A stretch of DNA of 64,000 nucleotides from an uncultured Anaerobiospirillum sp. (GCA_944389615.1 CALXNA010000008.1:16194-80193), one strand, 5' to 3'; counted from the first letter of the stretch, positions 34,622-56,684 are shown. Made by a program: numbers and translations. The notes: generated from the letters alone by a model not told the origin.

Positions 34622-35159
34622 TGCGCCATGCCGCAGCAAGGCTGGACAGCAGCGCCTAAAGGCCAGAACCAAGGCGCTGCCTTGGGGTTCAGCCGCAGCA
34701 CCTGCCTTTCCCTTAGAGACCCAACGCAGTTGCCCGCAGGTGGGGCGGCAAGCGGCGAGCGTAGCCGCTCTAGAGTCGGCCCAGTTACTCGCTCCGGCGG
34801 ATGGACGACTCTCGAGAACGCATAGGCCGCTCTGGGTGGCCCTCACCGTGCTTGCCGCCAAGCCCTGCGTCCCTCTTCTAGCGCTCCAGAGGCGCATACC
34901 TCTCTCTTTGACGCCCTCAACGCAGCTGATGCCGCATTGCCTGCGGCGGGCGCGCTCTGCCTCACCTTCTGGTTCCGCACCGAAAGTCCTCTTTGCGGCT
35001 CTTTTGCCGTGCCTCACCGCCTCCTCCGAGGAGTTGTGACATTAGCCCATAAAAGTACGGGATCGCAGCAACCGATCTGTATTTGCGCTCATGGGCTTGA
35101 CTACGCCCTGTGCCAATTTTGGGGACAATGTCCAAAAATACACTATTTTAACCAATAAG

Positions 35160-35540
35160 CGCGTTTATGGGGCCGAAGTGGGACGATAGCGTTTGCGCTC
35201 AGAAAAGCGATAAACATCGCATTGGTTGCGCCGGTATAGATAGCATTGGAGTATCTAGTTTTGACTATGTTTGAGACTTGGTGTGGGGCTTATTACTTGT
35301 GGGAAAATTTCAAGGAACTACCGCCTGCTAGTTGCTATCAAGCTGATATAATAGCGTCTTTTATGTGTAGATAGCTTGTGGGATTCTTTGGAGAATATCA
35401 CGCGCAGTTTGTGATTTTCCCACAAGCAGACTCAACTGAAGATGTGCGTTAGAACCTTCGTGAACAAAACTATACTGTATTAGCTTTTTAGCTTATAGTT
35501 TGGTGTGTTATCTATTATTATGTTTTGACACGAAAAATCT
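35160..35540. other. AT-rich non-coding patch carrying three CTTGTGGGAWW / WWTCCCACAAG boxes
   Basis: The AT content is conspicuously higher than in the surrounding DNA. Boxes lie at ~35296-35307 (cttgtgggaaaa), ~35375-35385 (cttgtgggatt) and ~35415-35426 (ttttcccacaag, inverted). Confidence 0.5.
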
Positions 35541-35750
35541 ATAAAGTGTGGCACATAGTACGGCGAAGAGTAGGAGCGCTTCCAGTATTTTTCGCTAGGG
35601 CTGCATCGATCGGTGTGATCTCGCGCTTGATATGCTTAATGTCAACATATTGCGGGCCGGGAGCTGCGCGTGCGTTTTTGGGGCTGATTTGCGCATTCCG
35701 GTTGCGCCACCTGCGGCCTGTAAGCGCGAAGACGCTGCAGCGTGTGAGCC

Positions 35751-35990
35751 GCACGGAGAGCGCCCAGAGCGTATGTTTGAGCAGTGCACCAAGGGAAAAT
35801 AGGGCGCAAAGCCTGCGTGCTCTCCTGCACGCTGTACGCAGCGTCTGTGGCGGTTGAGGCTGAGAGGGCAAAAGACGCACGGAGAGCGCCCAGAGCGCGC
35901 GTTTGAGTGGTATGTTGCGGGGGAGTAGGGCGTGATGTCTGCGTGCGCTCCTGCGCGCTGTACGCTGGGGCTACGGTGGTCGGTGCGGAT
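35751..35990. repeat. Two tandem imperfect direct repeats of ~125 bp
   Basis: Both units start gcacggagagcgcccagagcg and share ...gtttgag...tagggcg...ctgcgtgc.ctcctgc.cgctgtacgc (roughly three-quarters identical by eye). Confidence 0.6.
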
Positions 35991-36111
35991 AGTGGCGCGT
36001 TGCGCGGATGGGAGGGAGCCTACGCGCTGGAGATAGGGTTACGCCCGGCCCTTGGGTGTTGGGTCGGGCGGTTGTAGGCCTATATGGGACACGTCTTGTA
36101 CTGATGCGCTC

Positions 36112-38622
36112 TTAGGCGGAGGCGCTGGCGGCTACCGCAGGCAGAGCGTCGGGCTCTACGTTGTGCGGAGCGCTGGGAATTGCGCCCTGCTGCAGGTACG
36201 GCAAGGTGCGCGTGATCTTATCCCAGAGGAACTTGGTGGCTTCTTGCGTCTGAGCACTGAGCTCGAGCACGCCAATTGTGGTGGCAGGGCGTAACAGCCG
36301 CGCAAGCGGCGAGTCATGGTAATCATACGCCCTATAGCGCGGCGTAGGGCTGGCGCCGCTGGCGCCTGAGCTGTGCTGCGCGCGCGTAACACGGCCATTG
36401 AGCGCCATGATCATGCACGGTGACTTGGTGCCCACCAGCTGATATCCGGGGAATACTTCCTCGGCATTGGTCTGAGGGGCGAGCTCGTCGTCTGCGGCAT
36501 GCCCGTCCTTGACCACTTGGGTGCGGCGCAGCACCGCAATGGTCATATTGGTGCTGTATTTTTTGATCAAGTCCTCAAGGTAGAGATCGATGACGTTGTC
36601 GCTGCGCGAGAACTTAGCGTCGAGCACGATGTAGTCGTCGTCACCGGGGATGCTGTCACCACTTGAAAACTTCAAGATGAAGTCCGGGCAGTAGAAGTTG
36701 TCGGGGTTGTTGCGCCCGCGCTCCGTCTTGCAGTTGGTGCGGAAGGCGAAGATCTTGTTGTAAAAGGATGTGGTCGAAATCACTGGCTGGTAGTAGACCG
36801 TTACCTTTTGCTTGCCGCGGGTTAAGACATAGGTGTTGGCGATCGGATCTTCGTAGCTGTAGTTGTTGCGCACGCAAATACTGCCCATACTGCCGGTCGG
36901 GCGCATAGGGCTGAGGCTTTGGCCTTGGTGGTAGCCGCACCCATAGGCTGCTGCTGGGCGACGGTCGGCGCGCAGGCCGACTGGGTCAGCGTAGCGAGCG
37001 GGCTCAGTGTAGCGGCTTTGATCGGCGTAGCGGCCCGATACGGCATAGCTTGAGCGCTGCGCGCCCCATGGCGCCTGCAAGAACGGCTCGTTGCGCGCGT
37101 AGTCAAAGGTAAACGAGGCTTCGCCGTGAATCGGGGTAAAGCCTGCGGTCAGGAGCATGTCCAAGAGGCGGTAGAGGCAGTAGTACTCAAAGAGCTTGTC
37201 CAAGGTCTTGCTCTGCAAGAAGAGCTTGTCCTTTTGCAGCGAGAACTCGCCATAGCGGAACCAGCGATGGATGGTATGGAATATCTGAGCGTACGGCTTG
37301 AGCTCTTGGAAGGCCTTGGCTTGGCGCGGCAGCTGATGGAGCAGCACGTGCTTGAACTTGAAGAGCTGGGCGTAGTGGCGATAGAGCTCGCTTAACTCCG
37401 TCAGATGCTGCTTTAACTGCTCGAGCTCCTGCTGGCACTTTTGGTACTGCAAGGACTTCACCGTGATGATCGGTGCCTCGTAGTTGGTGCCTTGCTCCTT
37501 AAGCTTGGCGCGCAGCGCCTGCAGCGAGTGCTCGTTATCATCGAGGAAGTTCTTGTATTCTTGAGCCGTCTTGCTGACGTTGTGCACCACCATCTGCAAA
37601 AAGCCCACAACGACGCGATTTTCGTAGGTGTCAAAGCTCTTGACGTTGGTCGTGCTCTGCAGCTGCATCGGCAGATAGCTCTGCCCTAAGTAGGTGAGCG
37701 CAGCTTGCTCGGGCACTACTTGCGCGAGGACATGCAGGTTCTGCGTCAGCCACATTTGGCTCTTGTGGGTGAGCATACGCACCTTATCAAAGGAGGTGAC
37801 GATGTCCGCCTTGACCAACATGTGCTTGGCCATGGTACGAAAGTAGTGGTAGTGGCTCTGATAGCAGGATAAGACCTGCGCTACCAGCTCGACGTAGGAA
37901 CTGAGCGACTTGTAGGAACGATGGGCACCAAAGAAGTTGCTCTGCAGATTCTCCTTGTCAGCGGCATGCGCAAACATCAGATCCAAGATGGTGTCATCTT
38001 CGATCGACGTTAGCTCCATGAGGATCTGGCTGATGTTGCGATTGTCGGATTGATTGCGGCTGGCGCATAACAAAAAGCTCTCGCCGTAGAGTGTAAACTC
38101 GGTGCCGTCGCTCAGCTCGACCGTGATGCCCAAGGTCACCGTATCGTACTGGGTTAAAAAGATCTGAGGATGATTGCGCCGGGCATCGGGAACGAACTTG
38201 GCCTGAACTAAGTTGCGCCGAGATGGCGGGAGCAAGCTGAGCTCGCCCTTGTCTTGGTCGTTGATCTTCAGCGTCAGTCGCTTGATGCTTTTGGGCTGGT
38301 CTGCGGGCGTGAACAAGGTACGCGCGTAGTTGCGCGTCAGCTCGTCCTCGTCCGGCCCGATCAGCCCTAGGTCATACTGGGCAAGGCGCGCCCCTTGGCT
38401 CAGCGGCTCAGCGTCGGTCAGCTCTGTCTCTTCGGCATTGCTTGCGGCTAAGAGCGGCTCGAGCTCATTGAAATCGATGGTGAGATCTAAGTCGTAGCGC
38501 GCATCCTCAATGACATTGGGGCAGGTGGCGATGTCAATGGCACGGAGCTTGGGCTCTTGCAGCGTCAAGGGCAAGTGGATGTGGCCTTGCGAACTGATTA
38601 AAGTGGCAAAAATGGCAGCCAT
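36112..38622 (-). CDS. McrC/DUF524-like PD-(D/E)xK nuclease subunit (836 aa), partner of the upstream AAA+ protein
   Basis: Candidate catalytic triad E479 (KLFEYYCLY), P646-D647 (FYCPDFIL) and D668-A-K670 (YIVLDAKFS). It starts 66 nt downstream of the McrB-like gene on the same strand. The large N-terminal region is unrecognised. Confidence 0.7.
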   Translation of the reverse strand: MAAIFATLISSQGHIHLPLTLQEPKLRAIDIATCPNVIEDARYDLDLTIDFNELEPLLAASNAEETELTDAEPLSQGARLAQYDLGLIGPDEDELTRNYARTLFTPADQPKSIKRLTLKINDQDKGELSLLPPSRRNLVQAKFVPDARRNHPQIFLTQYDTVTLGITVELSDGTEFTLYGESFLLCASRNQSDNRNISQILMELTSIEDDTILDLMFAHAADKENLQSNFFGAHRSYKSLSSYVELVAQVLSCYQSHYHYFRTMAKHMLVKADIVTSFDKVRMLTHKSQMWLTQNLHVLAQVVPEQAALTYLGQSYLPMQLQSTTNVKSFDTYENRVVVGFLQMVVHNVSKTAQEYKNFLDDNEHSLQALRAKLKEQGTNYEAPIITVKSLQYQKCQQELEQLKQHLTELSELYRHYAQLFKFKHVLLHQLPRQAKAFQELKPYAQIFHTIHRWFRYGEFSLQKDKLFLQSKTLDKLFEYYCLYRLLDMLLTAGFTPIHGEASFTFDYARNEPFLQAPWGAQRSSYAVSGRYADQSRYTEPARYADPVGLRADRRPAAAYGCGYHQGQSLSPMRPTGSMGSICVRNNYSYEDPIANTYVLTRGKQKVTVYYQPVISTTSFYNKIFAFRTNCKTERGRNNPDNFYCPDFILKFSSGDSIPGDDDYIVLDAKFSRSDNVIDLYLEDLIKKYSTNMTIAVLRRTQVVKDGHAADDELAPQTNAEEVFPGYQLVGTKSPCMIMALNGRVTRAQHSSGASGASPTPRYRAYDYHDSPLARLLRPATTIGVLELSAQTQEATKFLWDKITRTLPYLQQGAIPSAPHNVEPDALPAVAASASA

Positions 38623-38688: not shown

Positions 38689-41600
38689 CTAGCGCGCAAA
38701 GAACTGATAGAAGCCTAACTCGGCGCCACCGGTGCGCTGGATGCGCTTTAAGTGGCGGGCGCACAGCGGCATGTTTTGTTCGCCGCACTCTGCGATCAGC
38801 TTTTCGATGAGGATGCGATAGCGTTCGCCGCTGCCATTGATGGTCGGCAGGATCTTCTGGGCGACGGCATAGTCCAGCGGTGCAAACCTAGTGGTTGGGC
38901 TGTTGCGGCTCATGCAGCGCGCGGCGACCACGCAGTAGTTGTAAACCATGCGGATGTTACGGGGGCGCAGTGGCATGGCGCAGCTTTCGTCGGCGAAGAT
39001 GGCCTGAATGGCCTCCCACCTTTGCTCTAAGCTCGCGTCGAGCTTGTCGCCTTCATGGGCGCTGAAGGCCTGCATTAAGCTGGCAAAAGGCACCATGGTC
39101 TCGTCGTGATCAGGGCTGTTATCAGGCTCCAGCTCGACGACGCTCGGTTCTAAGGTGATGACCCAGCTGCGGTCTAAGAAGCGCGGCGAGAGCTCTTCGG
39201 TGGTGTGGTCAAAGTTGACCGTGGCCAAGAAGCGCAGGTGATCTGGTAAGAGCCAGTTGGCGTTGCCGCCTAAGCTGATGGTGCGCTCGCTTAGTGGGCT
39301 AAAGTCGCAGTTTCTAAAGAATGCGGCCCAGTAGTGCTCAATCGGGCTTAAGTTGGCCTCATCGAGCAGGATGAAGTATGGGGCGATCTTGGCTGGGTTG
39401 TAGGCGCTGCCATCACTGGCCCATTGGGCTTCACGGTTTAACTCCATGAAGGCATCGAAGATCTCGGCGTTGCTCTTCTCCATGCGCTTGGTCAGCGGGT
39501 TGTAGTAACCGATCATGTCCTTAAGCGACGTCCAGCCACGCTCGACCGAGACTTCGCTGAAGCGATCGGCGCCGTCCAAACGGGCAAGGCCTAAGGCTCG
39601 TGCCAGCAAGTTGCACAGGGAAGTCTTGCCAGTACCCGGCTCACCGGCAAAGGTGGTGATGAAGCCTTGGGTGATGCAGATGAGGTAGTTGGCCACATCG
39701 TTGCGTTCTAAGTTGCGGTGGCCAACCTTGTTTAAGTAGTTGGTGACGCGATCTAAGATCTTGTTGGCGTTATCAACGCTCTTGACCTCAGCTAAGAGTT
39801 TGGTATCGAAGTCAGGCGCAAGCTGGGCCATGGTCTCCTCCGAGGAGGCCTCGCTATTGCGCAGCTTGCTGTTCTTGGCGCTGGTTGGGGGGATGGTGGT
39901 GGCCACCGGAGCGCTGACCCCCATTGGGATGGCACCTAAGAGCGAACCGATGATCTTGGCGTCGATGAGCTTGACGGCAGCTGCGGCCTTGTCTTGGTAG
40001 GCACTCAGAGCCGTCTTGAGCTTGCCCTCAAGCTGCGTGGCTAATTGCTGCTGCTCCTTTTGTTGGGACTTCGCTTGCTCGATTTGCTGATTGAGCGCCT
40101 CCAAGGTCTGTTGGCGCTCGTTGATGGCGCTGTTTTGCTCAATGATCTTTAAGTTGAGCTCCTTGGCCTCTTGCTGCTTGGATTCGATTGCGGCGCTCAA
40201 CGTATCCAAGGCCTTGGTGGTTTGCTCGAAGGCGGGGTTAGCCGGAGCATTCTTGCTGGCTTTAGTATTCTTCTTGCCTGAGATGAGCTGGCTGACGCGC
40301 CCTTCATCGTAGAGCGAGAGCTCCTCGCTCAGCTGCTTGTTTTGGCTCTGCAAGATGCGGTTTTGGTCTTGCTGCGCCACTAAGGCCTTGCGCAGCTGCG
40401 TGAGCTCTTGCTGCAGTTCCTCAGGTGCGGCAGCTGGAGCGTCAGTAGCAGCCGGAGTGGCGGCCTTACTGCGGGATTGGGCCAGCTTTTGCGCGGCTTG
40501 CTGGGCGACCTTGTTGGCGGCCTCGTTCTTAACGTCCGTCCACGCCTCTTGGGTGGCGGCAGCGCCGGTACCGGCGAGGGTCGAAATCTCTTCGAGCTTG
40601 ACGCTCAGATCGGTGACGCCATGATAGTTCTTGGTGTACTCCGCCAAGATCTTGCTGCCTTGCAAGTCCGAGAGGCGTTGGTTGAGGTTGAGGTATAAGG
40701 CGTCTAACTCGCTGCTTAAGGCTTGCAGGTCGGCGTTCTTGGCCAAGTTCTTATCGTGGCCTAAGGCCGCGTGCATCATGGTGCGGACATTGGCGCAGAG
40801 CTTGACGATGAGGCCACCGACGTCCATGAAGTGGGCGATCAAGGTTGGGTTTAAGGCCGTGGTGCTGACTGCCATATCCATATCGATGTCAGGATCGGCC
40901 GCCAGAGCTAAGCTCGAGTAGATCGCGTTGAGCTTATCTAAGATATTGTTGCCTTCGCCAATCAGATTCTTGATGTTGGTGAGGGTAGCTCCATCTTGGA
41001 GTAGGTCGAAGCTGACCGGGGCGGCGGCACTGGCCTTGGCCTTGGTGACGGCGCGCGCTAGCTGCTGGTCTTCAAGCAGCGTATCTTGGGTCTTGTTTAA
41101 GAGCGCCGACTTGACGTCATCGACGTACGAGCTTGGCAGCTGGCGTAAGAGCTCATCGCCATCTTCCGATAAGATCGTGGAGATGAAGTGCTCGCGGAAC
41201 TCATCGTTGTCGAGCGTCAGCTCGATGATGTTCTGATAGAGGTTCCGGTCAAGGTAGATCAAAGGTAAGAGCTGCTTGACGGTTTGCAGGCGCTGCTCGC
41301 TTAAGTTGATCGACTGATTGCCCTTGAAGAGCTCTTGGCAGAAGGTAGTGATCGGACGGATGTCCTGACGGCTTAAGTTGAGCTGGGCGCGGACGCGATC
41401 TAAGAACATTTCGACCAAGCGCGGTTGGTCGATCATGTCGTAGCTACGGTTGCTCTCCTGCGGATTAGGCAAGAGGTTGGTCGGCAGGGCATAGAGCATA
41501 TCGCGATCGCGTTGGTCGCGAATGGTCAGGATGTCTTGGTCAAACTTGGCGATAGGATAGCCGCCGATCATGAAGTCGTAGCGCTCAAGGCCGTTTAACT

Positions 41601-42129
41601 TCATCACACCGGCGCGCATCTCCGGCTCAAACGGGCCGTAGAGCATGTTGCCGATGCGCAGGATGATGTAGTTGCTAAAGCAATCACTTTCGTTGAAGCT
41701 ATCGCACTCGTGATAGCGCAAGATGCTGTTGAGATCTTGGTTGCTTTCCTTGATTTCGTAGAAGGTCGAGCTATCGAAAGTTTCCAGCCAGATTTCCGAG
41801 CGATCTCGGCCATAGGCCGGGTTATAGCGCAGCTGATAGTAGTTGTTAGTGTTGTAGTTGGCCTGCGGGTCGGTGTTGATGCGCGCGGAGACCACTGGGC
41901 CTAAGCGTTGGTAGAGCTGCTCGGCCGTCTCTTGGCCATTGAGGCGCACGGCGATACGGCCGTAGGTCGGGAAGTTGAGTTGGCTGTCGATCCACTCAAA
42001 CTTGCCATGGTTGACGATGTAGCGTGGATAGAGATAGCACACGCGGTTACCGGTGCCGATGCTGTCTTTAAAGTACGGATCGTAGGAGAGCCAGCAGAGA
42101 AGCTGGCGATTTAAGAATTTACTATCCAT
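38689..42129 (-). CDS. McrB-like AAA+ NTPase (1146 aa) with an unrecognised N-terminal domain and a long coiled-coil/low-complexity stalk
   Basis: Walker A FAGEPGTGKTS (aa 827-837; nt ~39622-39645). Walker B plus McrB-type signature YFILLDEANLSPIEHYWAAFF (aa 918-938). ATVNFDHTTEELSPRFLDRSWVITL follows (aa 969-993). Residues ~330-800 are heptad-like and Q/A/E/K/L-rich. Confidence 0.8.
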   Translation of the reverse strand: MDSKFLNRQLLCWLSYDPYFKDSIGTGNRVCYLYPRYIVNHGKFEWIDSQLNFPTYGRIAVRLNGQETAEQLYQRLGPVVSARINTDPQANYNTNNYYQLRYNPAYGRDRSEIWLETFDSSTFYEIKESNQDLNSILRYHECDSFNESDCFSNYIILRIGNMLYGPFEPEMRAGVMKLNGLERYDFMIGGYPIAKFDQDILTIRDQRDRDMLYALPTNLLPNPQESNRSYDMIDQPRLVEMFLDRVRAQLNLSRQDIRPITTFCQELFKGNQSINLSEQRLQTVKQLLPLIYLDRNLYQNIIELTLDNDEFREHFISTILSEDGDELLRQLPSSYVDDVKSALLNKTQDTLLEDQQLARAVTKAKASAAAPVSFDLLQDGATLTNIKNLIGEGNNILDKLNAIYSSLALAADPDIDMDMAVSTTALNPTLIAHFMDVGGLIVKLCANVRTMMHAALGHDKNLAKNADLQALSSELDALYLNLNQRLSDLQGSKILAEYTKNYHGVTDLSVKLEEISTLAGTGAAATQEAWTDVKNEAANKVAQQAAQKLAQSRSKAATPAATDAPAAAPEELQQELTQLRKALVAQQDQNRILQSQNKQLSEELSLYDEGRVSQLISGKKNTKASKNAPANPAFEQTTKALDTLSAAIESKQQEAKELNLKIIEQNSAINERQQTLEALNQQIEQAKSQQKEQQQLATQLEGKLKTALSAYQDKAAAAVKLIDAKIIGSLLGAIPMGVSAPVATTIPPTSAKNSKLRNSEASSEETMAQLAPDFDTKLLAEVKSVDNANKILDRVTNYLNKVGHRNLERNDVANYLICITQGFITTFAGEPGTGKTSLCNLLARALGLARLDGADRFSEVSVERGWTSLKDMIGYYNPLTKRMEKSNAEIFDAFMELNREAQWASDGSAYNPAKIAPYFILLDEANLSPIEHYWAAFFRNCDFSPLSERTISLGGNANWLLPDHLRFLATVNFDHTTEELSPRFLDRSWVITLEPSVVELEPDNSPDHDETMVPFASLMQAFSAHEGDKLDASLEQRWEAIQAIFADESCAMPLRPRNIRMVYNYCVVAARCMSRNSPTTRFAPLDYAVAQKILPTINGSGERYRILIEKLIAECGEQNMPLCARHLKRIQRTGGAELGFYQFFAR

Positions 42130-42356: not shown

Positions 42357-43796
42357 CTACTTACCGATACAGAACGTAGAGAAGATGATACCTAAGATAT
42401 CATCGGAGGTGACCTTGCCCGTGATCGTGCCCAAGTGCTCTTGGGCGATGCTGAGCTCGCGGGCGGTGAGTACGAGGTCACCGAGCTCTAGCATTTCTTG
42501 GGCGCGCTTAAGGGCCTCAGCGCTCTCGTTTAAGGCCGTCAGGTGCCGACGGCGCGCCGAGAAGACGCCTTCGCTGGGGATAATGCCTAAGACTTCGTGG
42601 AGCTTACGGCGTAACTGCTCTAAGCCGTGCTCGGTCTTCGTGGAAGTGGCAATTTGCTCCATCTGAGCCCAAGGCTCTTGGGTGAGCAAGGCGGCCGTCT
42701 CCGCGTTAGGCGGCAGGTCGCTCTTGGACTTGAGCACCATAAGATGCTTCGGGTGATCAAAGAGCTTTTGCATGTGGTTTAACGCTTCCAAGGCCTCAGC
42801 GGCGGGCTTGGAGGTGTCGATCATGAGCAAGATCAAATCGGCTTGCTTGAGCTCATCTAAGGCGCGGGCGATGCCAATCGCTTCGATCTCATCGCTCGGG
42901 CGATCGCGGATGCCGGCCGTATCGGTGATGGTGACCGGAATGCCGCCGATTTCGATGTTGATGGTCAGGACATCACGGGTGGTGCCCGGGATGTTGGTGA
43001 CAATGGCGCGTTCACTACCGGCGAGCGCATTGAGCAGGGAGCTCTTACCGGCGTTAGGTTGGCCTGCGAGCACGATGCGCGCGCCCTCATTTAAGCGCAC
43101 GCCTTGACCGGCGATGGTCACCGCCTCTTGGGTGAGGGCGCAGAGGTGCGCTAACTCGCTTTGGGCGCGGCCTGAGTCAAAGAAGTCTTCATGCTCCTCA
43201 GGGAAGTCGAGGCAGGCCTCTAAGCGCACGCGCAATTGCGTCAGCTGCTCACTTAACTGTTGCAGGCGCACGGCAAAGGCGCCATTTAACGACGCTAAAG
43301 CGGCCTTGGCGGCGCTCTCGGAGCCGGCTGAGATCAAATCCTCGACTGCTTCGGCCGCGGTCAGATCCATCTTGCCGTTTAAGAAGGCGCGCCGGGTAAA
43401 CTCGCCGGGTTCCGCTTGGCGCACGCCTGCGATCTTGAGCACGGCTGAGAGCACGCGCTGTGGTACCACGTTGCCGCCGTGGCCTTGCAGCTCAACCACG
43501 TCTTCGCCTGTGTAGGAGTGCGGGGCGGCGTAGTACACGATGACGCCTTCATCGACCTCATCTAAGCCATCGTAGAACTTGCGCAGGTAGACATAGCGCG
43601 GCTTCAGCGGCGCGGCGCTGAGCTCAGGCGGCAACTCCGCCGGAAGCTCTTTTAAGGCATTGAGCTTAGGGTCATGGGCCTTTGTTATGAGGGTGGCGAC
43701 TTTGCGGGCATCTGGGCCTGAGATGCGCACAATGGCAATACCGCCGCGTCCGGGCGGGGTGGCAATGGCCGCAATCGAGTCGTTAAAGTCGAGCAT
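42357..43796 (-). CDS. mnmE: tRNA modification GTPase MnmE (TrmE/ThdF)
   Basis: G domain GQPNAGKSSLLNAL, DTAGIR, and the C-terminal FCIGK signature. Confidence 0.95.
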   Translation of the reverse strand: MLDFNDSIAAIATPPGRGGIAIVRISGPDARKVATLITKAHDPKLNALKELPAELPPELSAAPLKPRYVYLRKFYDGLDEVDEGVIVYYAAPHSYTGEDVVELQGHGGNVVPQRVLSAVLKIAGVRQAEPGEFTRRAFLNGKMDLTAAEAVEDLISAGSESAAKAALASLNGAFAVRLQQLSEQLTQLRVRLEACLDFPEEHEDFFDSGRAQSELAHLCALTQEAVTIAGQGVRLNEGARIVLAGQPNAGKSSLLNALAGSERAIVTNIPGTTRDVLTINIEIGGIPVTITDTAGIRDRPSDEIEAIGIARALDELKQADLILLMIDTSKPAAEALEALNHMQKLFDHPKHLMVLKSKSDLPPNAETAALLTQEPWAQMEQIATSTKTEHGLEQLRRKLHEVLGIIPSEGVFSARRRHLTALNESAEALKRAQEMLELGDLVLTARELSIAQEHLGTITGKVTSDDILGIIFSTFCIGK

Positions 43797-45870: not shown

Positions 45871-46473
45871 CTAGCGCGCCGCATTGCCTGCCGTCGCGTC
45901 AGCTGCGCTGTGAGCGGCGCAGGGCGCGTCTGCCGCCTGCGCGGCCACCCAGTCGGCGCTGGGCGCCGCTGCGGCCACCGTGGCTGCAGCGCTACGCGTT
46001 GCGCTCGTGCTATCCGCGGCGCCTTCAGGGGCCATGTGAGCCTGCGGCTGGGCGCAGACCTCAGGCGCGGCCTGAAGTTGGGAGCTCACGGCGCAGCTTG
46101 CGCTACTTACGCAGCTGGCGCTGCTCACGCTATTTGCACTAGCGCTACTTGCGTCGTGGGTGCTGCTTGCGCTGCTTGGCGCGGGGGAAGTTGGGTCGAC
46201 CGGGGTATTCGTGGCGCTGGTGCTGTCGCCGGGCGCGCCCTTCTTGGGCACGGGATCAAAGCCGCCCGGATTGAGCGGATGGCAACGACTCAGCCGCTTG
46301 GCGCCGAGCCAAGTGCCTTTGATCAGACCCCATTCTTGAATGGCTTCTAAGGTGTATTGCGAGCAGCTCGGGTAGAACCGACAGCGCTGCCCTAAGAGTG
46401 GACTTAGAACTTTCTGATAGGTGCGGATCAGGAGGATCGCGCTTTGCCCGACAGGCGAGAGATTTGAGCCCAT
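45871..46473 (-). CDS. yidD: Membrane protein insertion efficiency factor YidD with a ~115-aa low-complexity C-terminal extension
   Basis: [36 protein letters not shown]...[13 protein letters not shown]. The 5' end overlaps the rnpA 3' end. Confidence 0.8.
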
Positions 46474-53021: not shown

Positions 53022-56000
53022 ATGGACTCTTGGCAAATCTGGCGTCAGGCAATTTTAAGGGTTGCTACGTCAACAGCAGAGACCTTAGAGGCGAAGGTCA
53101 TCAAGCTCTTCTTCTATGAGGTGGGCTTCATCCTTGACCTTGAGCTCGATAAGGTTCGTCTCGTCTGCTCCTCGGAATACGCCTTAAGGAGCTTTGCTCC
53201 TTATAGCTGGCGGTGCTTTGCCGAGGTCAAGGCGCTGCTGCGTAACCCAAATCTCGGCTACTCTTTGGAGATCGTATCGCCCAAGGAGCAGGCCGTGCTG
53301 TGCGCTTCAGGTAAGCTGCCTCAATCTGAGTTCTTAGCGGGGATTAGCCTCGCTGAGTCCGAGCTTCAGGCGCCATCAACCTTCCCTAAGGTTGATTGCA
53401 TCATCACCTCAGGCCCGACGGCGGGCTTTAATCCGATCAATGTCGGCGTTAGCACTTTCCCACAAGGCTTAAGTCCTCTGGGAGGCGCATGCGCAGCGGC
53501 TTGGAGCGCTCCTATCGCCCCAAGTGTCGCGCCTACTTTCCCACAAGTAACGCCGGTCAGCGCCCCTGCGGCACAACAACCTGCGCAGGCCGCTGCGGAT
53601 GCGAGCGCATCTGCAGCAAGCGCGCCTGCTGCGGCTGGAAGCGCGCCTGATACGAGTGCCTCCGCCTCTACCGATTTTGCGCCTACTGCGGCCGCAAGCC
53701 GTCAGTATGGCTCTTACCCTATTCAGGAGCAGTCAGCTGCTGCGGTCACGACAGATCAGGTCTTTGGCCACGGTGGTGAAGCTGCGACTGATGTTGTAAA
53801 AACTGGCGATTTAGCATCGCTACGGTTAACTGATAACTCCTCGTTTAGTGAGGAACATGACACAAACCATCGGGAATTCAAAACTTCGTCATGGGTTACA
53901 GCTCCCCAACCGAGCAACTGCGTTTCCGGCATCGAATTCTCCGAGCCAGCGCAGGATGATGCGGTCCATAACCAGACTTATGATCGCCAGTCCCTTAACA
54001 ACAGCGATTTAGCTCAGCCTTCAGCGGAAGGATTAGCTCCTGAGGCCTATGAGTTCATGGCGCCTCCGGTTAGCTGCGCCCCGGTCGATCTGCCGCCTGA
54101 AGACGACTTCGTCTTAGCCGGGGCCGATATGCATGGCGCCAGCGGCTTAGGCGTTGAGCTCACCGCGGCCGGAGCGCTGCAGAGCGCGCAGCCGGGCCCT
54201 TCAGGGGGCACGGCCGCCAAGTTCAATCAAAACGCTGAGGCTTTAGCCGCACGCATCAACAACACCTTGTTGGTGCCGCCGTTTGATTACCCAGAAGGGG
54301 CCTCGTACGACGACTGGTATGCCCAAACAGGCTACCAAGCCGCAACCTCGGCCCTGCCGCCGCGCGAGCAGTTTGAGCTGTTCCCTTTTGATCCAGATCT
54401 GCAGCCGCCCCAGCGCGACTTTGATGAACCTGAGATCGCGGTAGTCACTCCGTCTACCCCGTCGGCGCCTCACACCGCGTCTGTGGCCCCTCAGGCTATG
54501 CCGTCCCAGGCTCCTCAAGTAGCTTCGCAAGTAGCTGTGCCGCACTCTGTGCCACAAGTTGTGCCGCAGGCGCAGCCGATGCCTGCGCAGATTCCTGCGC
54601 TGGGGCCGCAAGCGGTGCTGCCTCCTGCTGAGGTGTCGCCGCAAGTGACGTCTCACTTGCCGCCGCAAGATTTGGTGCCATCAGAGTTAGCCCGCCCGCA
54701 GTCTCAGGTCGAGACTGCTTTGGTGTCTCATCAGACCAAGGTGATGCCTGAGATTAGACTTCAAGCCCAGCTAGGGGCGACTCTTGCTCAGCCGCAGGTG
54801 CCGCTGCAGGTGCCGCAGGCTCAGCCGGTAGCACAGCCCGTAGTGCAGCCTGCTGCCGTGGCAGCGACCGTTTTGTCGGATGTGCCGCAGTCGGTACAGG
54901 ATATTACGCGCTGCGAAGAGCTGGCCGATGAAATCTTGCAGCCCACGCATGCCTCGGCCTTGGTGAGGGAAGCCTTAAACGTTAAGGCCCAGCGCGAGCA
55001 AGCCGCCCGCAGCGCCAGCATTGCGGCCTTACCGAAGGTGGTATCAGGCCCGATGGCTAGCGTCTATGCCGCGGCCGCCAAGCGTAAGCGCAATTGTTCG
55101 TCGCTGCCGCAGCCTAATGCGCTGTTAAGCCAAGAGAAGGTGCAGACCACGACGCTCAATCCTGATGAGCCAGCGGTGCTACCGGCTCCGGAGTTGCTGC
55201 GCCAAGTCGAGCAAGGCGTGGGTGGACTCACCCCATTCTTACCGAACGATGGCTCGCGCCATCAGCTCAACTTAGATAACTTCAAGTTGAGCGCTGAGCA
55301 GATTGCCGCTAGCAAGAAGCTCAATCAGGTCTTAGCCGAACAGTTTAAACAGATCTCGTCCCAGCGCTTGATCTACAAGGCCCGTCAAGCTGAGTTGGCC
55401 AAAAACCGCGCCATGTCGCATAAGCGTAAGGGCGAGCCACAGCTGCTGGAGCGCTTTGAGGGTTACTTGCCGGGCATGGATCCGGTGACCTTCCAGCCGC
55501 TGCCGCAAAATCAGCTCGATCCGCTGCATCCTAATGCCTTAGGCGGGATGCCGCTTGCGGGCAGTCCGTTTGCCCCGCAAGTGCCAGAGCAGCCGGAGCT
55601 GACGCTCTCCGTGCCGATGGTTGAGGTCAATCCGGTCAAGACCTTTAGCACCTATGTCTCGGATACACGCAACTTCGAGATTTTGAATGCTGCTTCGCTG
55701 TTGGCGCAGTATGTGGGCGTGCCGCAAGTCAACCCATTCTTACTCTACGGTGACTCGGGCGTGGGCAAGACCCATATCCTGCATGCGATTGCCAACGCGA
55801 TTGCGTACTATCACCCTGAGTACAAGGTGGCCTTTATCCGCGCCGAAGAGTTCTTGCAGAACTATGTCTCTTCGATCTCGGAGAGCGGTAAGAATCGCTT
55901 TGCTGACAGTCAGATCTACTTCCAGCAGGCCTTTTTGCAGTATGACGTGTTGATTTTCGACGACATCCAAGCCTTGGCTAAGGGCGTCAAGAGCCGTCAG

Positions 56001-56684
56001 GTCTTCTTTGAAGTGATCTCGGCCTTCCTTGATCGTCCGGGCACGCAGCTTATTGTGGCTTCGAATCAGATGCCACGTGAGCTCAAGGACAAGGGCTTTG
56101 ATGCCAGCTTGCTCTCGCGCATGGGCTCAGGTTTATGCATGCCGCTGCTCAAGCCGAACTGGGCCAATCGCCGCGACATCGTCAACGCCAAGTGCCAAGA
56201 GATGGGGATCACCATGTCTGAGGACATTGTGGACTACATCTCGATGAACCTCAATCCGAACGTGCGTGAGATCGAGGGTGCGTTGAAGACGCTGCACTCC
56301 TTCTTAAACAGCAATGGCTCACTCACCTATGACGATGCTGTGCGTACGCTCTCAGGCTTCATTAGCGCTGGGGCGGGCCATGTGCTCACCATAAGTGAGA
56401 TCCAGTCGACCGTGGCCAAGGAGTTTGGTGTGTCGGTCAAAGACTTGCTCTCCAGCTGCAAGAAGAAGGCGATCTCGCAGGCGCGCTCGCTGGCCATGAC
56501 CATTGCCCGCGATGTCATCGCCAACAACTCGCTCAACGATCTGGGGCGTGCCTTCAAGAAGGATCACACCTCAGTGCACGAAGCGATTGTCCGTACCCGT
56601 GATCGACTCCAGCATGACAGCGCCTTAAAAGAAAAGTACGATCACATCATCAAGGCCTTATCCGAGCTGGCGCGCAAGCCATAG
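53022..56684 (+). CDS. dnaA: Chromosomal replication initiator DnaA, 1220 aa with a ~780-aa Pro/Ala/Gln-rich domain II
   Basis: Domain I-like N-terminus (aa 1-90). AAA+ domain III with GDSGVGKTH (aa 910-918) and VLIFDDIQ. Domain IV has ISQARSLAMTIARDV...LNDLGRAFKKDHTSVHEAI. The frame stays open throughout. Confidence 0.85.
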   Translation: MDSWQIWRQAILRVATSTAETLEAKVIKLFFYEVGFILDLELDKVRLVCSSEYALRSFAPYSWRCFAEVKALLRNPNLGYSLEIVSPKEQAVLCASGKLPQSEFLAGISLAESELQAPSTFPKVDCIITSGPTAGFNPINVGVSTFPQGLSPLGGACAAAWSAPIAPSVAPTFPQVTPVSAPAAQQPAQAAADASASAASAPAAAGSAPDTSASASTDFAPTAAASRQYGSYPIQEQSAAAVTTDQVFGHGGEAATDVVKTGDLASLRLTDNSSFSEEHDTNHREFKTSSWVTAPQPSNCVSGIEFSEPAQDDAVHNQTYDRQSLNNSDLAQPSAEGLAPEAYEFMAPPVSCAPVDLPPEDDFVLAGADMHGASGLGVELTAAGALQSAQPGPSGGTAAKFNQNAEALAARINNTLLVPPFDYPEGASYDDWYAQTGYQAATSALPPREQFELFPFDPDLQPPQRDFDEPEIAVVTPSTPSAPHTASVAPQAMPSQAPQVASQVAVPHSVPQVVPQAQPMPAQIPALGPQAVLPPAEVSPQVTSHLPPQDLVPSELARPQSQVETALVSHQTKVMPEIRLQAQLGATLAQPQVPLQVPQAQPVAQPVVQPAAVAATVLSDVPQSVQDITRCEELADEILQPTHASALVREALNVKAQREQAARSASIAALPKVVSGPMASVYAAAAKRKRNCSSLPQPNALLSQEKVQTTTLNPDEPAVLPAPELLRQVEQGVGGLTPFLPNDGSRHQLNLDNFKLSAEQIAASKKLNQVLAEQFKQISSQRLIYKARQAELAKNRAMSHKRKGEPQLLERFEGYLPGMDPVTFQPLPQNQLDPLHPNALGGMPLAGSPFAPQVPEQPELTLSVPMVEVNPVKTFSTYVSDTRNFEILNAASLLAQYVGVPQVNPFLLYGDSGVGKTHILHAIANAIAYYHPEYKVAFIRAEEFLQNYVSSISESGKNRFADSQIYFQQAFLQYDVLIFDDIQALAKGVKSRQVFFEVISAFLDRPGTQLIVASNQMPRELKDKGFDASLLSRMGSGLCMPLLKPNWANRRDIVNAKCQEMGITMSEDIVDYISMNLNPNVREIEGALKTLHSFLNSNGSLTYDDAVRTLSGFISAGAGHVLTISEIQSTVAKEFGVSVKDLLSSCKKKAISQARSLAMTIARDVIANNSLNDLGRAFKKDHTSVHEAIVRTRDRLQHDSALKEKYDHIIKALSELARKP

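Follow-up and report, generated by a model that had tools for sequence, protein, structure and literature searches.

A probable NxD-type McrB motor subunit with a family-restricted N-terminal module in an uncultured Anaerobiospirillum species

A 64,000-nucleotide stretch of DNA from an uncultured Anaerobiospirillum sp. (GCA_944389615.1 CALXNA010000008.1:16194-80193; hereafter, the window) carries on its minus strand a gene for a protein of 1146 amino acids (aa), which is probably the motor component of a McrBC-like restriction system that comprises two genes and belongs to the NxD/coiled-coil (CoCoNuT-like) branch. An initial annotation had described positions 39733-42129 as an N-terminal domain and a coiled-coil stalk, about 800 aa in all, fused to a McrB-like nucleoside triphosphatase (NTPase) in which N-x-D takes the place of N-x-x-D. 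This span corresponds to aa 1-799 of one open reading frame (ORF; 38689..42129, minus strand), in which all the peptides quoted by the annotation are present. A conserved deletion that converts NxxD to NxD marks a major branch of McrB GTPases, and a large clade of this branch, in which long coiled coils are fused to the GTPase and paired with McrC homologues, constitutes the CoCoNuT systems (Bell et al., eLife 2024, PMC11090510). Types I-A and I-C of these systems have no genes besides those for CnuB and CnuC, the latter type having the architecture CSD-YTH-CoCo-McrB plus IG-McrC_N-PD-DxK (PMC11090510). The NxD motif and the coiled-coil fusion are thus already published hallmarks, and it is only the N-terminal module of the protein that stays without known relatives.

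The affiliation with McrB is most evident in the NTPase domain, for which searches with aa 770-1146 recovered 324 homologues. Its signature loop reads VN-F-D-HTT, one residue shorter than MNxxDRS/NxxD, and NxD occurs within the context ATVNxD in 46 of 50 full-length family representatives, with NFD in 41 of those 46. A hidden Markov model (HMM) of the family aligns with the published Type I-A CnuB TBC54486.1 at 90.5 bits, with FLATVNFDHTTEELSPRFLDR placed on VIGAVNMDETTHHLSPKVLDR and the N-F-D loop on VNMDETTHHLSPKVLDR of the published protein (VNMDE in TBC54486.1), and scores 45 bits against the partial CnuB ROR86958.1 and 18 bits against E. coli McrB. For the latter, hhalign gives a probability of 94% and superimposes N972 on N333 of the NTAD motif. 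In line with these alignments, a search of the whole PDB with a profile restricted to the NTPase, which replaced an earlier profile whose coiled-coil columns drew Lon and ClpB through their helices, recovered the McrB chains 6hz4, 6ut6 and 7vsr at E ~1e-3. McrB alone gave a match running from Walker A to the sensor-1 Asn (McrB residues 198-333 against query positions 56-194), all other matches being confined to the P-loop, as were those of the full protein to Lon and PCH2 in a phmmer search of the PDB. Attempts to extend the hhalign alignment with McrB beyond the NxD loop were unsuccessful, and the one-residue deletion is therefore deduced from the alignment of the Asn, the register with a published NxD CnuB and the published analysis of the branch. 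The correspondence between N972-D974 and the McrB NTAD that the initial annotation had proposed is borne out by these searches and by the invariance of the motif in 90 relatives; likewise, its reading of a McrB-like NTPase one residue short of NxxD stands, as a variant already in the literature (PMC11090510). Walker B and the Asn are 48 aa apart in the window protein, and in 43 relatives this spacing is 48-52 aa. The helical insert typical of Type I-A is absent, since the HMM alignment to the I-A protein splits in two around an I-A insert of ~85 aa. Pfam yields sub-threshold matches to generic AAA/AAA_5 families only (AAA_5, 16.4 bits against a cutoff of 22).

The same annotation had suggested that the shortened motif could imply a different nucleotide specificity, on the premise that NxxD confers specificity for GTP. 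This premise is outdated. Niu et al. (2020, PMC7680126) report that mutation of the MNxxDRS segment leaves the nucleotide profile of E. coli McrB unchanged; recognition of guanine falls to elements lying upstream of the AAA+ core, and the signature Asn and Asp take part in catalysis, an Arg/Lys from McrC shifting their position. Moreover, the NxxD-bearing LlaI.R2 and BsuMI.R2 hydrolyse ATP, GTP, ITP and XTP (bioRxiv 10.64898/2026.08.31.748284). Because the signature loop does not set nucleotide specificity, the presence of NxD is no direct indication of whether GTP or ATP is used, and the suggestion of an altered specificity finds no support. Bell et al. argue instead that NxD alters the coupling to the cognate McrC (PMC11090510), and this is the effect to be expected here, with no predictable switch from GTP to ATP.

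The second line of evidence is the partner gene. A downstream partner with DUF2357/PD-DxK features adjoins the NTPase gene in all six loci compared, namely the window and five loci from Clostridium sp. and gut metagenomes (L005, L006, L008, L009 and L010). Weak DUF2357 matches were also obtained for the partner in four of these five (L005, L006, L008 and L009), no Pfam match being on record for L010; the L009 partner additionally shows a weak match to PDDEXK_7, and the distantly related partners in L005 and L006 also have the D…DAK motif of the window partner. By direct comparison, the partner segment FDTYENRVVVGFL resembles EDTLANRIIKSTL of E. coli McrC and IPENRYLRGLV of a published CnuC, and the sole local hhalign match of the partner family in E. 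coli McrC is the catalytic IVDAKYY. No PADLOC model matches the partner, nor does it match a CSD or a zinc ribbon. Between its DUF2357-like region and its nuclease domain there is a low-complexity insert rich in R, Y, P, G and S (window 36880-37090, aa ~513-580), which is ~70 aa long in the window, orthologues having 130-200 aa (L001 13400-13800, L003 13250-13700).

The third element is the N-terminal module. Word-indexed homologue searches with the full protein or aa 1-350 returned close relatives only, and the family became visible through an exhaustive HMMER scan of 1.84 billion representative proteins, which retrieved 94 clusters (69 at E<=1e-10, 39 at E<=1e-30). In every case the profile match begins within a few residues of the N-terminus, and all 50 full-length representatives (790-1395 aa) also possess a P-loop NTPase C-terminal to the module, Walker A, Walker B and NxD all being canonical in 44. 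P35, G165-P166 (in a YGPF hairpin) and L238 are invariant and D231 is near-invariant. The AlphaFold2 model of aa 1-350, built from a 55-sequence family alignment, has a mean pLDDT (score of the predicted local distance difference test) of 88.5 and a predicted template modelling (pTM) score of 0.73, and F, W and Y make up 12.4% of aa 1-330, as opposed to 2-3.5% of aa 330-780; the composition bears out the aromatic-rich character initially described. From the order of strands and helices in the model, the module may be read as an OB-like unit at ~aa 1-85 (beta1-3, helix, beta4-5) followed by a second beta-rich unit at ~aa 99-232. Neither Pfam, NCBIfam, PADLOC nor PHROGs, searched with the whole protein and with segments, provides a family match for aa 1-350, in keeping with the earlier statement that no motif could be assigned there. 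A Foldseek search of the N-terminal model against the PDB and BFVD returned nothing at E<=1e-3; its best matches, Fabs and tandem-OB HIN domains, were rejected at template modelling (TM) scores <0.2. The reader folds that had been proposed for comparison (EVE, YTH, ASCH, SRA and winged helix-turn-helix) were found by neither Pfam nor Foldseek, so that the module is not recognised as a characterised domain. It is, nonetheless, a real, rare, family-restricted and confidently folded domain, and the element of this system worth following up.

Two readings of this module can be considered. According to the first, the pair is the published Type I-C CoCoNuT, and its module is a divergent cold-shock-like OB domain plus a YTH-like domain that recognises RNA or a modified base. 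This is a possibility to be kept in view, albeit not the favoured one. Gene content and domain order match the published description (two genes; beta-rich domains of ~230 aa at the N-terminus, followed by a coiled coil and an NxD GTPase free of the I-A insert; and a partner combining a McrC_N-like region with an active-looking PD-DxK), and the first 85 residues display an OB-like order of strands. Thus, judged against the published description of Type I-C only, the module could equal the divergent pair of CSD-like OB and YTH-like domains described for that type, and on the same comparison the system, which has two genes and is not Type I-A, is possibly Type I-C. However, Pfam detects neither CSD nor YTH in the protein even at E<=1, the N-domain profile aligns with CspA and with the 'CSD' N-termini of Type I-A CnuB at hhalign probabilities of <1% (an HMM comparison was also negative), no CSD, YTH or EVE structure figures in the Foldseek top 50 of the N-terminal model, and the module is acidic. 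Furthermore, the NCBI accessions of the relatives coincide with none of the representatives of Bell et al., and those of NCBI members (MDR…, MDE…, MGO…) are recent and, judging from their form, appear to post-date the census, so that the family may have been outside it.

The second reading takes 230-350 residues at the N-terminus as an undescribed sensor fold, unrelated to CSD, YTH and EVE and exclusive to one NxD sub-branch. In place of modified DNA, such a fold might sense a protein or some other cue that is not a nucleic acid, for instance a component of translation or a protein made by a phage. This proposal, which is rather doubtful as it stands, was prompted by the acidity of the module: all three of its sub-regions have median isoelectric points of 4.9-5.2 across the family, which is atypical of DNA or RNA readers and speaks weakly against a generic nucleic-acid reader. 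If it were true, the sensing of a protein would, by way of a coiled-coil stalk, set off a McrBC-type nuclease.

The module and the NTPase are separated by helical regions that are less uniform than first thought. Seven close homologues (60-99% identity) share three conserved blocks (aa 1-350, 375-500 and 770-1146), while aa 500-770 are variable, with many indels. The full-length AlphaFold2 model (pLDDT 80.6, alignment of 90 sequences) upholds the conserved N-terminal module upstream of long helices that the initial annotation had outlined, but resolves several regions in place of one domain and a 470-aa coiled coil. The three long helices span 49, 54 and 96 residues and vary in length and sequence among relatives. 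A test of the heptad register of each helix against shuffles, which superseded a cruder heptad scan, yielded significant periodicity for helix 633-728 (z=3.8, p=0.001) and none above shuffles for helices 508-556 and 567-620. Accordingly, of the Q/A/E/K/L-rich region with long heptad runs placed at aa ~330-800, the composition (A, Q, L, K and E are abundant in aa 500-780) and the heptads of the last helix hold, whereas the other helices lack significant heptads; a coiled coil of ~470 aa was overstated, because ~220 residues are in long helices and ~100 of these are clearly heptad. Since helices 508-620 combined have about the length of helix 633-728, the model suggests an antiparallel hairpin stalk in which the two would face each other. 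Coiled-coil families match the equivalent region in relatives. Matches to SMC, JetC and SbcC (E 1e-5 to 1e-1) are compositional and limited to aa 470-800; an identity with SMC, JetC (Wadjet) or SbcC-Rad50 was rejected, as the matches cover the helical region only and the NTPase is of the AAA+ and not the ABC type. With most family members at ~790-890 aa, the window protein represents a minority form with expanded helical regions. The features of both genes are compiled in Table 1.

Table 1. Features of the NTPase gene and of its partner gene (positions counted from the first nucleotide of the window)
Feature	Position	Strand	Evidence
Whole gene: CnuB/McrB-like subunit, 1146 aa	38689..42129	-	ORF, close homologues, full-length AlphaFold2 model
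Beta-rich N-terminal module, aa 1-232	41434..42129	-	pLDDT >90 in two independent models, 94 family clusters
Helical part of conserved N-terminal region, aa 235-351, six helices, near-invariant R280	41077..41427	-	DSSP strings, N-domain profile matches
Second conserved helical region, aa 380-501 (helices 380-410, 428-458, 465-491), pLDDT ~80-95	40627..40992	-	Conservation block, AlphaFold2
Long-helix (coiled-coil) region, aa 508-728 (helices 508-556, 567-620, 633-728)	39946..40608	-	AlphaFold2, heptad test
Disordered P/S/T/A-rich linker, aa 729-762, pLDDT 30-50	39844..39945	-	AlphaFold2
AAA+ NTPase, McrB-like NxD clade, with C-terminal helical lid, aa 764-1146	38692..39840	-	Homologues, profile comparisons, model
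Walker A GEPGTGKT, aa 829-836	39622..39645	-	G829, G832, G834, K835 invariant in 90 sequences
Walker B ILLDE, aa 920-924	39358..39372	-	D923, E924 invariant in 90 sequences
N-F-D, aa 972-974, NxD form of McrB signature/sensor-1 loop	39208..39216	-	N972, D974 invariant in 90 sequences
McrC/CnuC-like partner, 836 aa	36112..38622	-	ORF 66 bp downstream of NTPase gene, same strand
Partner DUF2357 (McrC N-terminal finger domain) match, aa 266-375, includes FDTYENRVVVGFL	37498..37827	-	Pfam
Partner PD-(D/E)xK motif PDFIL…(20 aa)…VLDAKF, aa 647-670 (D647, D668, K670)	36613..36684	-	Invariant in three orthologues

Encoding of the module by a gene of its own, which would be expected of a modular specificity element, has at least one example. 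In Clostridium sp. LCP25S3_F8 (L006; JBQKKC010000001.1, 6108-10895) the system is distributed over four genes, of which that for the N-terminal module and coiled coil (614 aa) lies directly upstream of that for the NTPase (358 aa), the two others encoding a DUF2357 part (339 aa) and a nuclease part (254 aa). L009 (9101-14189), in which a stop codon follows the beta module, is perhaps a second case. Frameshifts or gaps in scaffolds account for some of the apparent splits; in L005 (7426-9914), for example, a frameshift inside the module is seen on 7 contigs. A sub-group of the family (P0157, P0160, P0163, P0180 and P0217) retains the module and coiled coil with a decayed Walker B and/or NxD (for example LLDNGD and TTLAGDHTG), and its sequences suggest catalytically inactive paralogues of the motor. 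Additionally, public gene calls are often truncated at the N-terminus (clusters P0025, P0030 and P0100), as illustrated by one 19.7-kb contig on which an NCBI 'AAA family ATPase' of 475 aa contrasts with a call of 846 aa, and for this reason the module is missing from many database entries.

Comparison with described systems refines this placement. The likeness to CoCoNuT CnuB-CnuC comprises the invariant NxD, a coiled coil N-terminal to the GTPase, an additional beta-rich N-terminal module, a two-gene operon in which the McrC-like partner has a DUF2357-like region and an intact PD-DxK motif, and an HMM match to a published CnuB that brings the two motifs into register. The differences are that the window NTPase has no I-A helical insert, that its module bears no detectable similarity to CSD or YTH, that its NxD is followed by His where Glu or Asp is usual, and that the partner has no CSD or zinc-ribbon match. 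With E. coli McrBC it shares the AAA+ core, Walker A and B, the sensor-1 Asn, a (here putative) specificity module N-terminal to the motor and a downstream nuclease partner with D…D-A-K; however, its signature loop is one residue shorter, overall similarity reaches only ~20 bits, ~760 aa stand in the place of the 160-aa DUF3578/ADAM reader of 5-methylcytosine in McrB, and its partner has 836 aa versus the 348 aa of McrC. The best match in defence libraries is PADLOC PDC-M26A (6.6e-20; 1e-22 to 1.6e-32 in relatives), which aligns with the coiled coil and with the NTPase as far as its midpoint. Since only positions ~90-430 of the 724 in the profile are involved, leaving the N-terminal module and the C-terminal half unmatched, PDC-M26A is a related family and not the same one. 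Finally, LlaI and BsuMI (R1 DNA-binding protein, R2 AAA+ motor and nuclease) resemble the family in that the specificity module is separate from the motor, as in L006 and probably L009, and further illustrate that the signature loop does not fix nucleotide specificity in the McrB family, but they keep NxxD, have no coiled coil and target DNA site-specifically.

Several observations weigh against a McrBC-like restriction system, beyond the acidity of the module noted above. The DUF2357 match of the window partner (22.7 bits) falls just below the Pfam cutoff of 23.3, and, taken as a whole, the hhalign comparison between the partner family and E. coli McrC falls short of significance. Experimental characterisation has not been reported for any NxD-clade protein (PMC11090510), and a literature search found no experimental work on CnuB or PDC-M26; the defence role, the target and the mechanism set out below are consequently taken from McrBC by analogy only. 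Foldseek assigns the full-length model to the AAA+ fold with dynein AAA modules, RavA, Lon, BrxL and MCM ranking first and no McrB chain in the top 50. Together with the sub-threshold Pfam matches and the name 'MoxR-like ATPase' given to some relatives, the Foldseek ranking would accommodate an AAA_5 ATPase of the MoxR/RavA or dynein type, i.e., a chaperone-like remodeller beside a functionally unrelated neighbour. Such an interpretation is highly improbable, given the 90-bit profile match to a published NxD CnuB, the alignment of McrB, alone among solved proteins, across the whole catalytic core, and a neighbour that in all six loci is DUF2357/PD-DxK-like and immediately downstream, in place of the VWA-domain partner typical of MoxR.

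The remaining adverse points concern the genomic setting. Upstream of the NTPase gene, on the same strand, are ORFs that, from their translations, we take to be mnmE, yidC, yidD and rnpA, and Pfam scans locate pqiA, together with a gene carrying a MlaD domain, directly past the partner, as well as dnaA and gyrB farther along, neighbours that place the pair in an origin-proximal housekeeping region of a gammaproteobacterial chromosome. The pair lies between pqiABC and mnmE-yidC-rnpA near dnaA, outside any defence island, with no defence or mobility genes beside it, and distant relatives are also found among housekeeping genes (obg/rplU/rpmA; der/plsY). Genome searches matched three Anaerobiospirillum metagenome-assembled genomes only, and these share with the window the order yidC – mnmE – B – C, where B and C denote the NTPase and partner genes, and the same downstream genes (at least four lineages). 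Identities within the genus amount to 83% for mnmE, 69% for B and 60% for C, which, together with the synteny, fits vertical inheritance in the genus with the pair evolving faster. Scans for Rfam families, tRNAs, promoters and terminators around the locus were uninformative.

A non-immune role has therefore been retained as a minority alternative, in which the pair would be a machine for housekeeping or stress response that is conserved in the genus; it might, for instance, be a motor that surveys RNA or the nucleoid in connection with translation or the replication origin, with the McrBC chassis acting on a cellular substrate. The order pqiABC – C – B – mnmE – yidC – yidD – rnpA, kept in the window and the three other genomes, and a divergence compatible with vertical descent are what it would predict, and non-defence roles have been put forward for Pseudo-Type I-B relatives (Bell et al., PMC11090510). 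Yet the family is distributed patchily across phyla (Anaerobiospirillum, Treponema, Clostridium and Ruminococcus), its members are often split, frameshifted or motif-degenerate, and evolution is faster in B and C than in the genes on either side. All these features are taken here as typical of defence or accessory genes, and the intact nuclease motif fits a restriction role, which leaves the housekeeping machine an unlikely explanation.

Further observations were made in the surroundings of the pair. In three unrelated loci, it lies within 0-8 kb of a gene for a translation-associated GTPase (window 42357-43796, L008 1484-2761 and L009 820-2154). In the window this is the ORF taken to be mnmE, in L008 an Obg-type gene, and in L009 a gene with tandem GTPase and KH-like domains, presumably der/engA-like; this proximity is probably a coincidence. 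Between the McrC-like gene and a 215-aa ORF that adjoins the MlaD-domain gene, 1.5 kb (window 34622-36111) contain no credible ORF, tRNA or Rfam match, and tblastx finds no conservation with the equivalent gap in the three Anaerobiospirillum genomes, both flanks being syntenic. The DnaA homologue (window 53022-56684, plus strand) has 1220 aa, whereas a typical DnaA has ~450-500 aa: a domain-I-like N-terminus is followed by a low-complexity linker of ~770 aa rich in A, P, Q and S, an AAA+ domain (aa 871-1039) and a C-terminal helix-turn-helix (aa 1124-1189). Similarly, the 200-aa product of the yidD ORF (window 45871-46473, minus strand) consists of a YidD-like core of ~80 aa and a low-complexity tail of ~120 aa rich in S, A, T and P.

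Returning to the favoured reading, a two-gene McrBC-type system most like the two-gene Type I architectures, the gene product would act as its CnuB-like motor and specificity subunit. If the solved McrBC complexes serve as a guide, the NTPase domains would assemble into a hexameric ring, into which the finger domain of the partner would insert to stimulate nucleoside triphosphate hydrolysis via the N972/D974 loop. The N-terminal module would serve as the specificity or sensor element and the long helices as a spacer or as a stalk for interactions; helices 508-620 may run antiparallel along helix 633-728 and so return the sensor towards the ring. Engagement of the target would then license the partner nuclease to cut nucleic acid, in defence against phages or other mobile elements.

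For work on the NxD/coiled-coil McrBC branch, on its nucleotide use and on its targets, which may be DNA, RNA or something else, the family described here offers a compact, two-gene version of these systems with a confidently modelled and sharply delimited candidate sensor module, and the natural split form in Clostridium sp. (L006, with L009 perhaps a second) shows that this module can act in trans. These properties, to which the sub-clade with decayed motor motifs adds, make the family tractable for asking what such motors sense and how a one-residue loop deletion affects coupling to McrC. They also bear on annotation, as the truncated public calls of its members are labelled only 'AAA family ATPase' or 'MoxR-like'.

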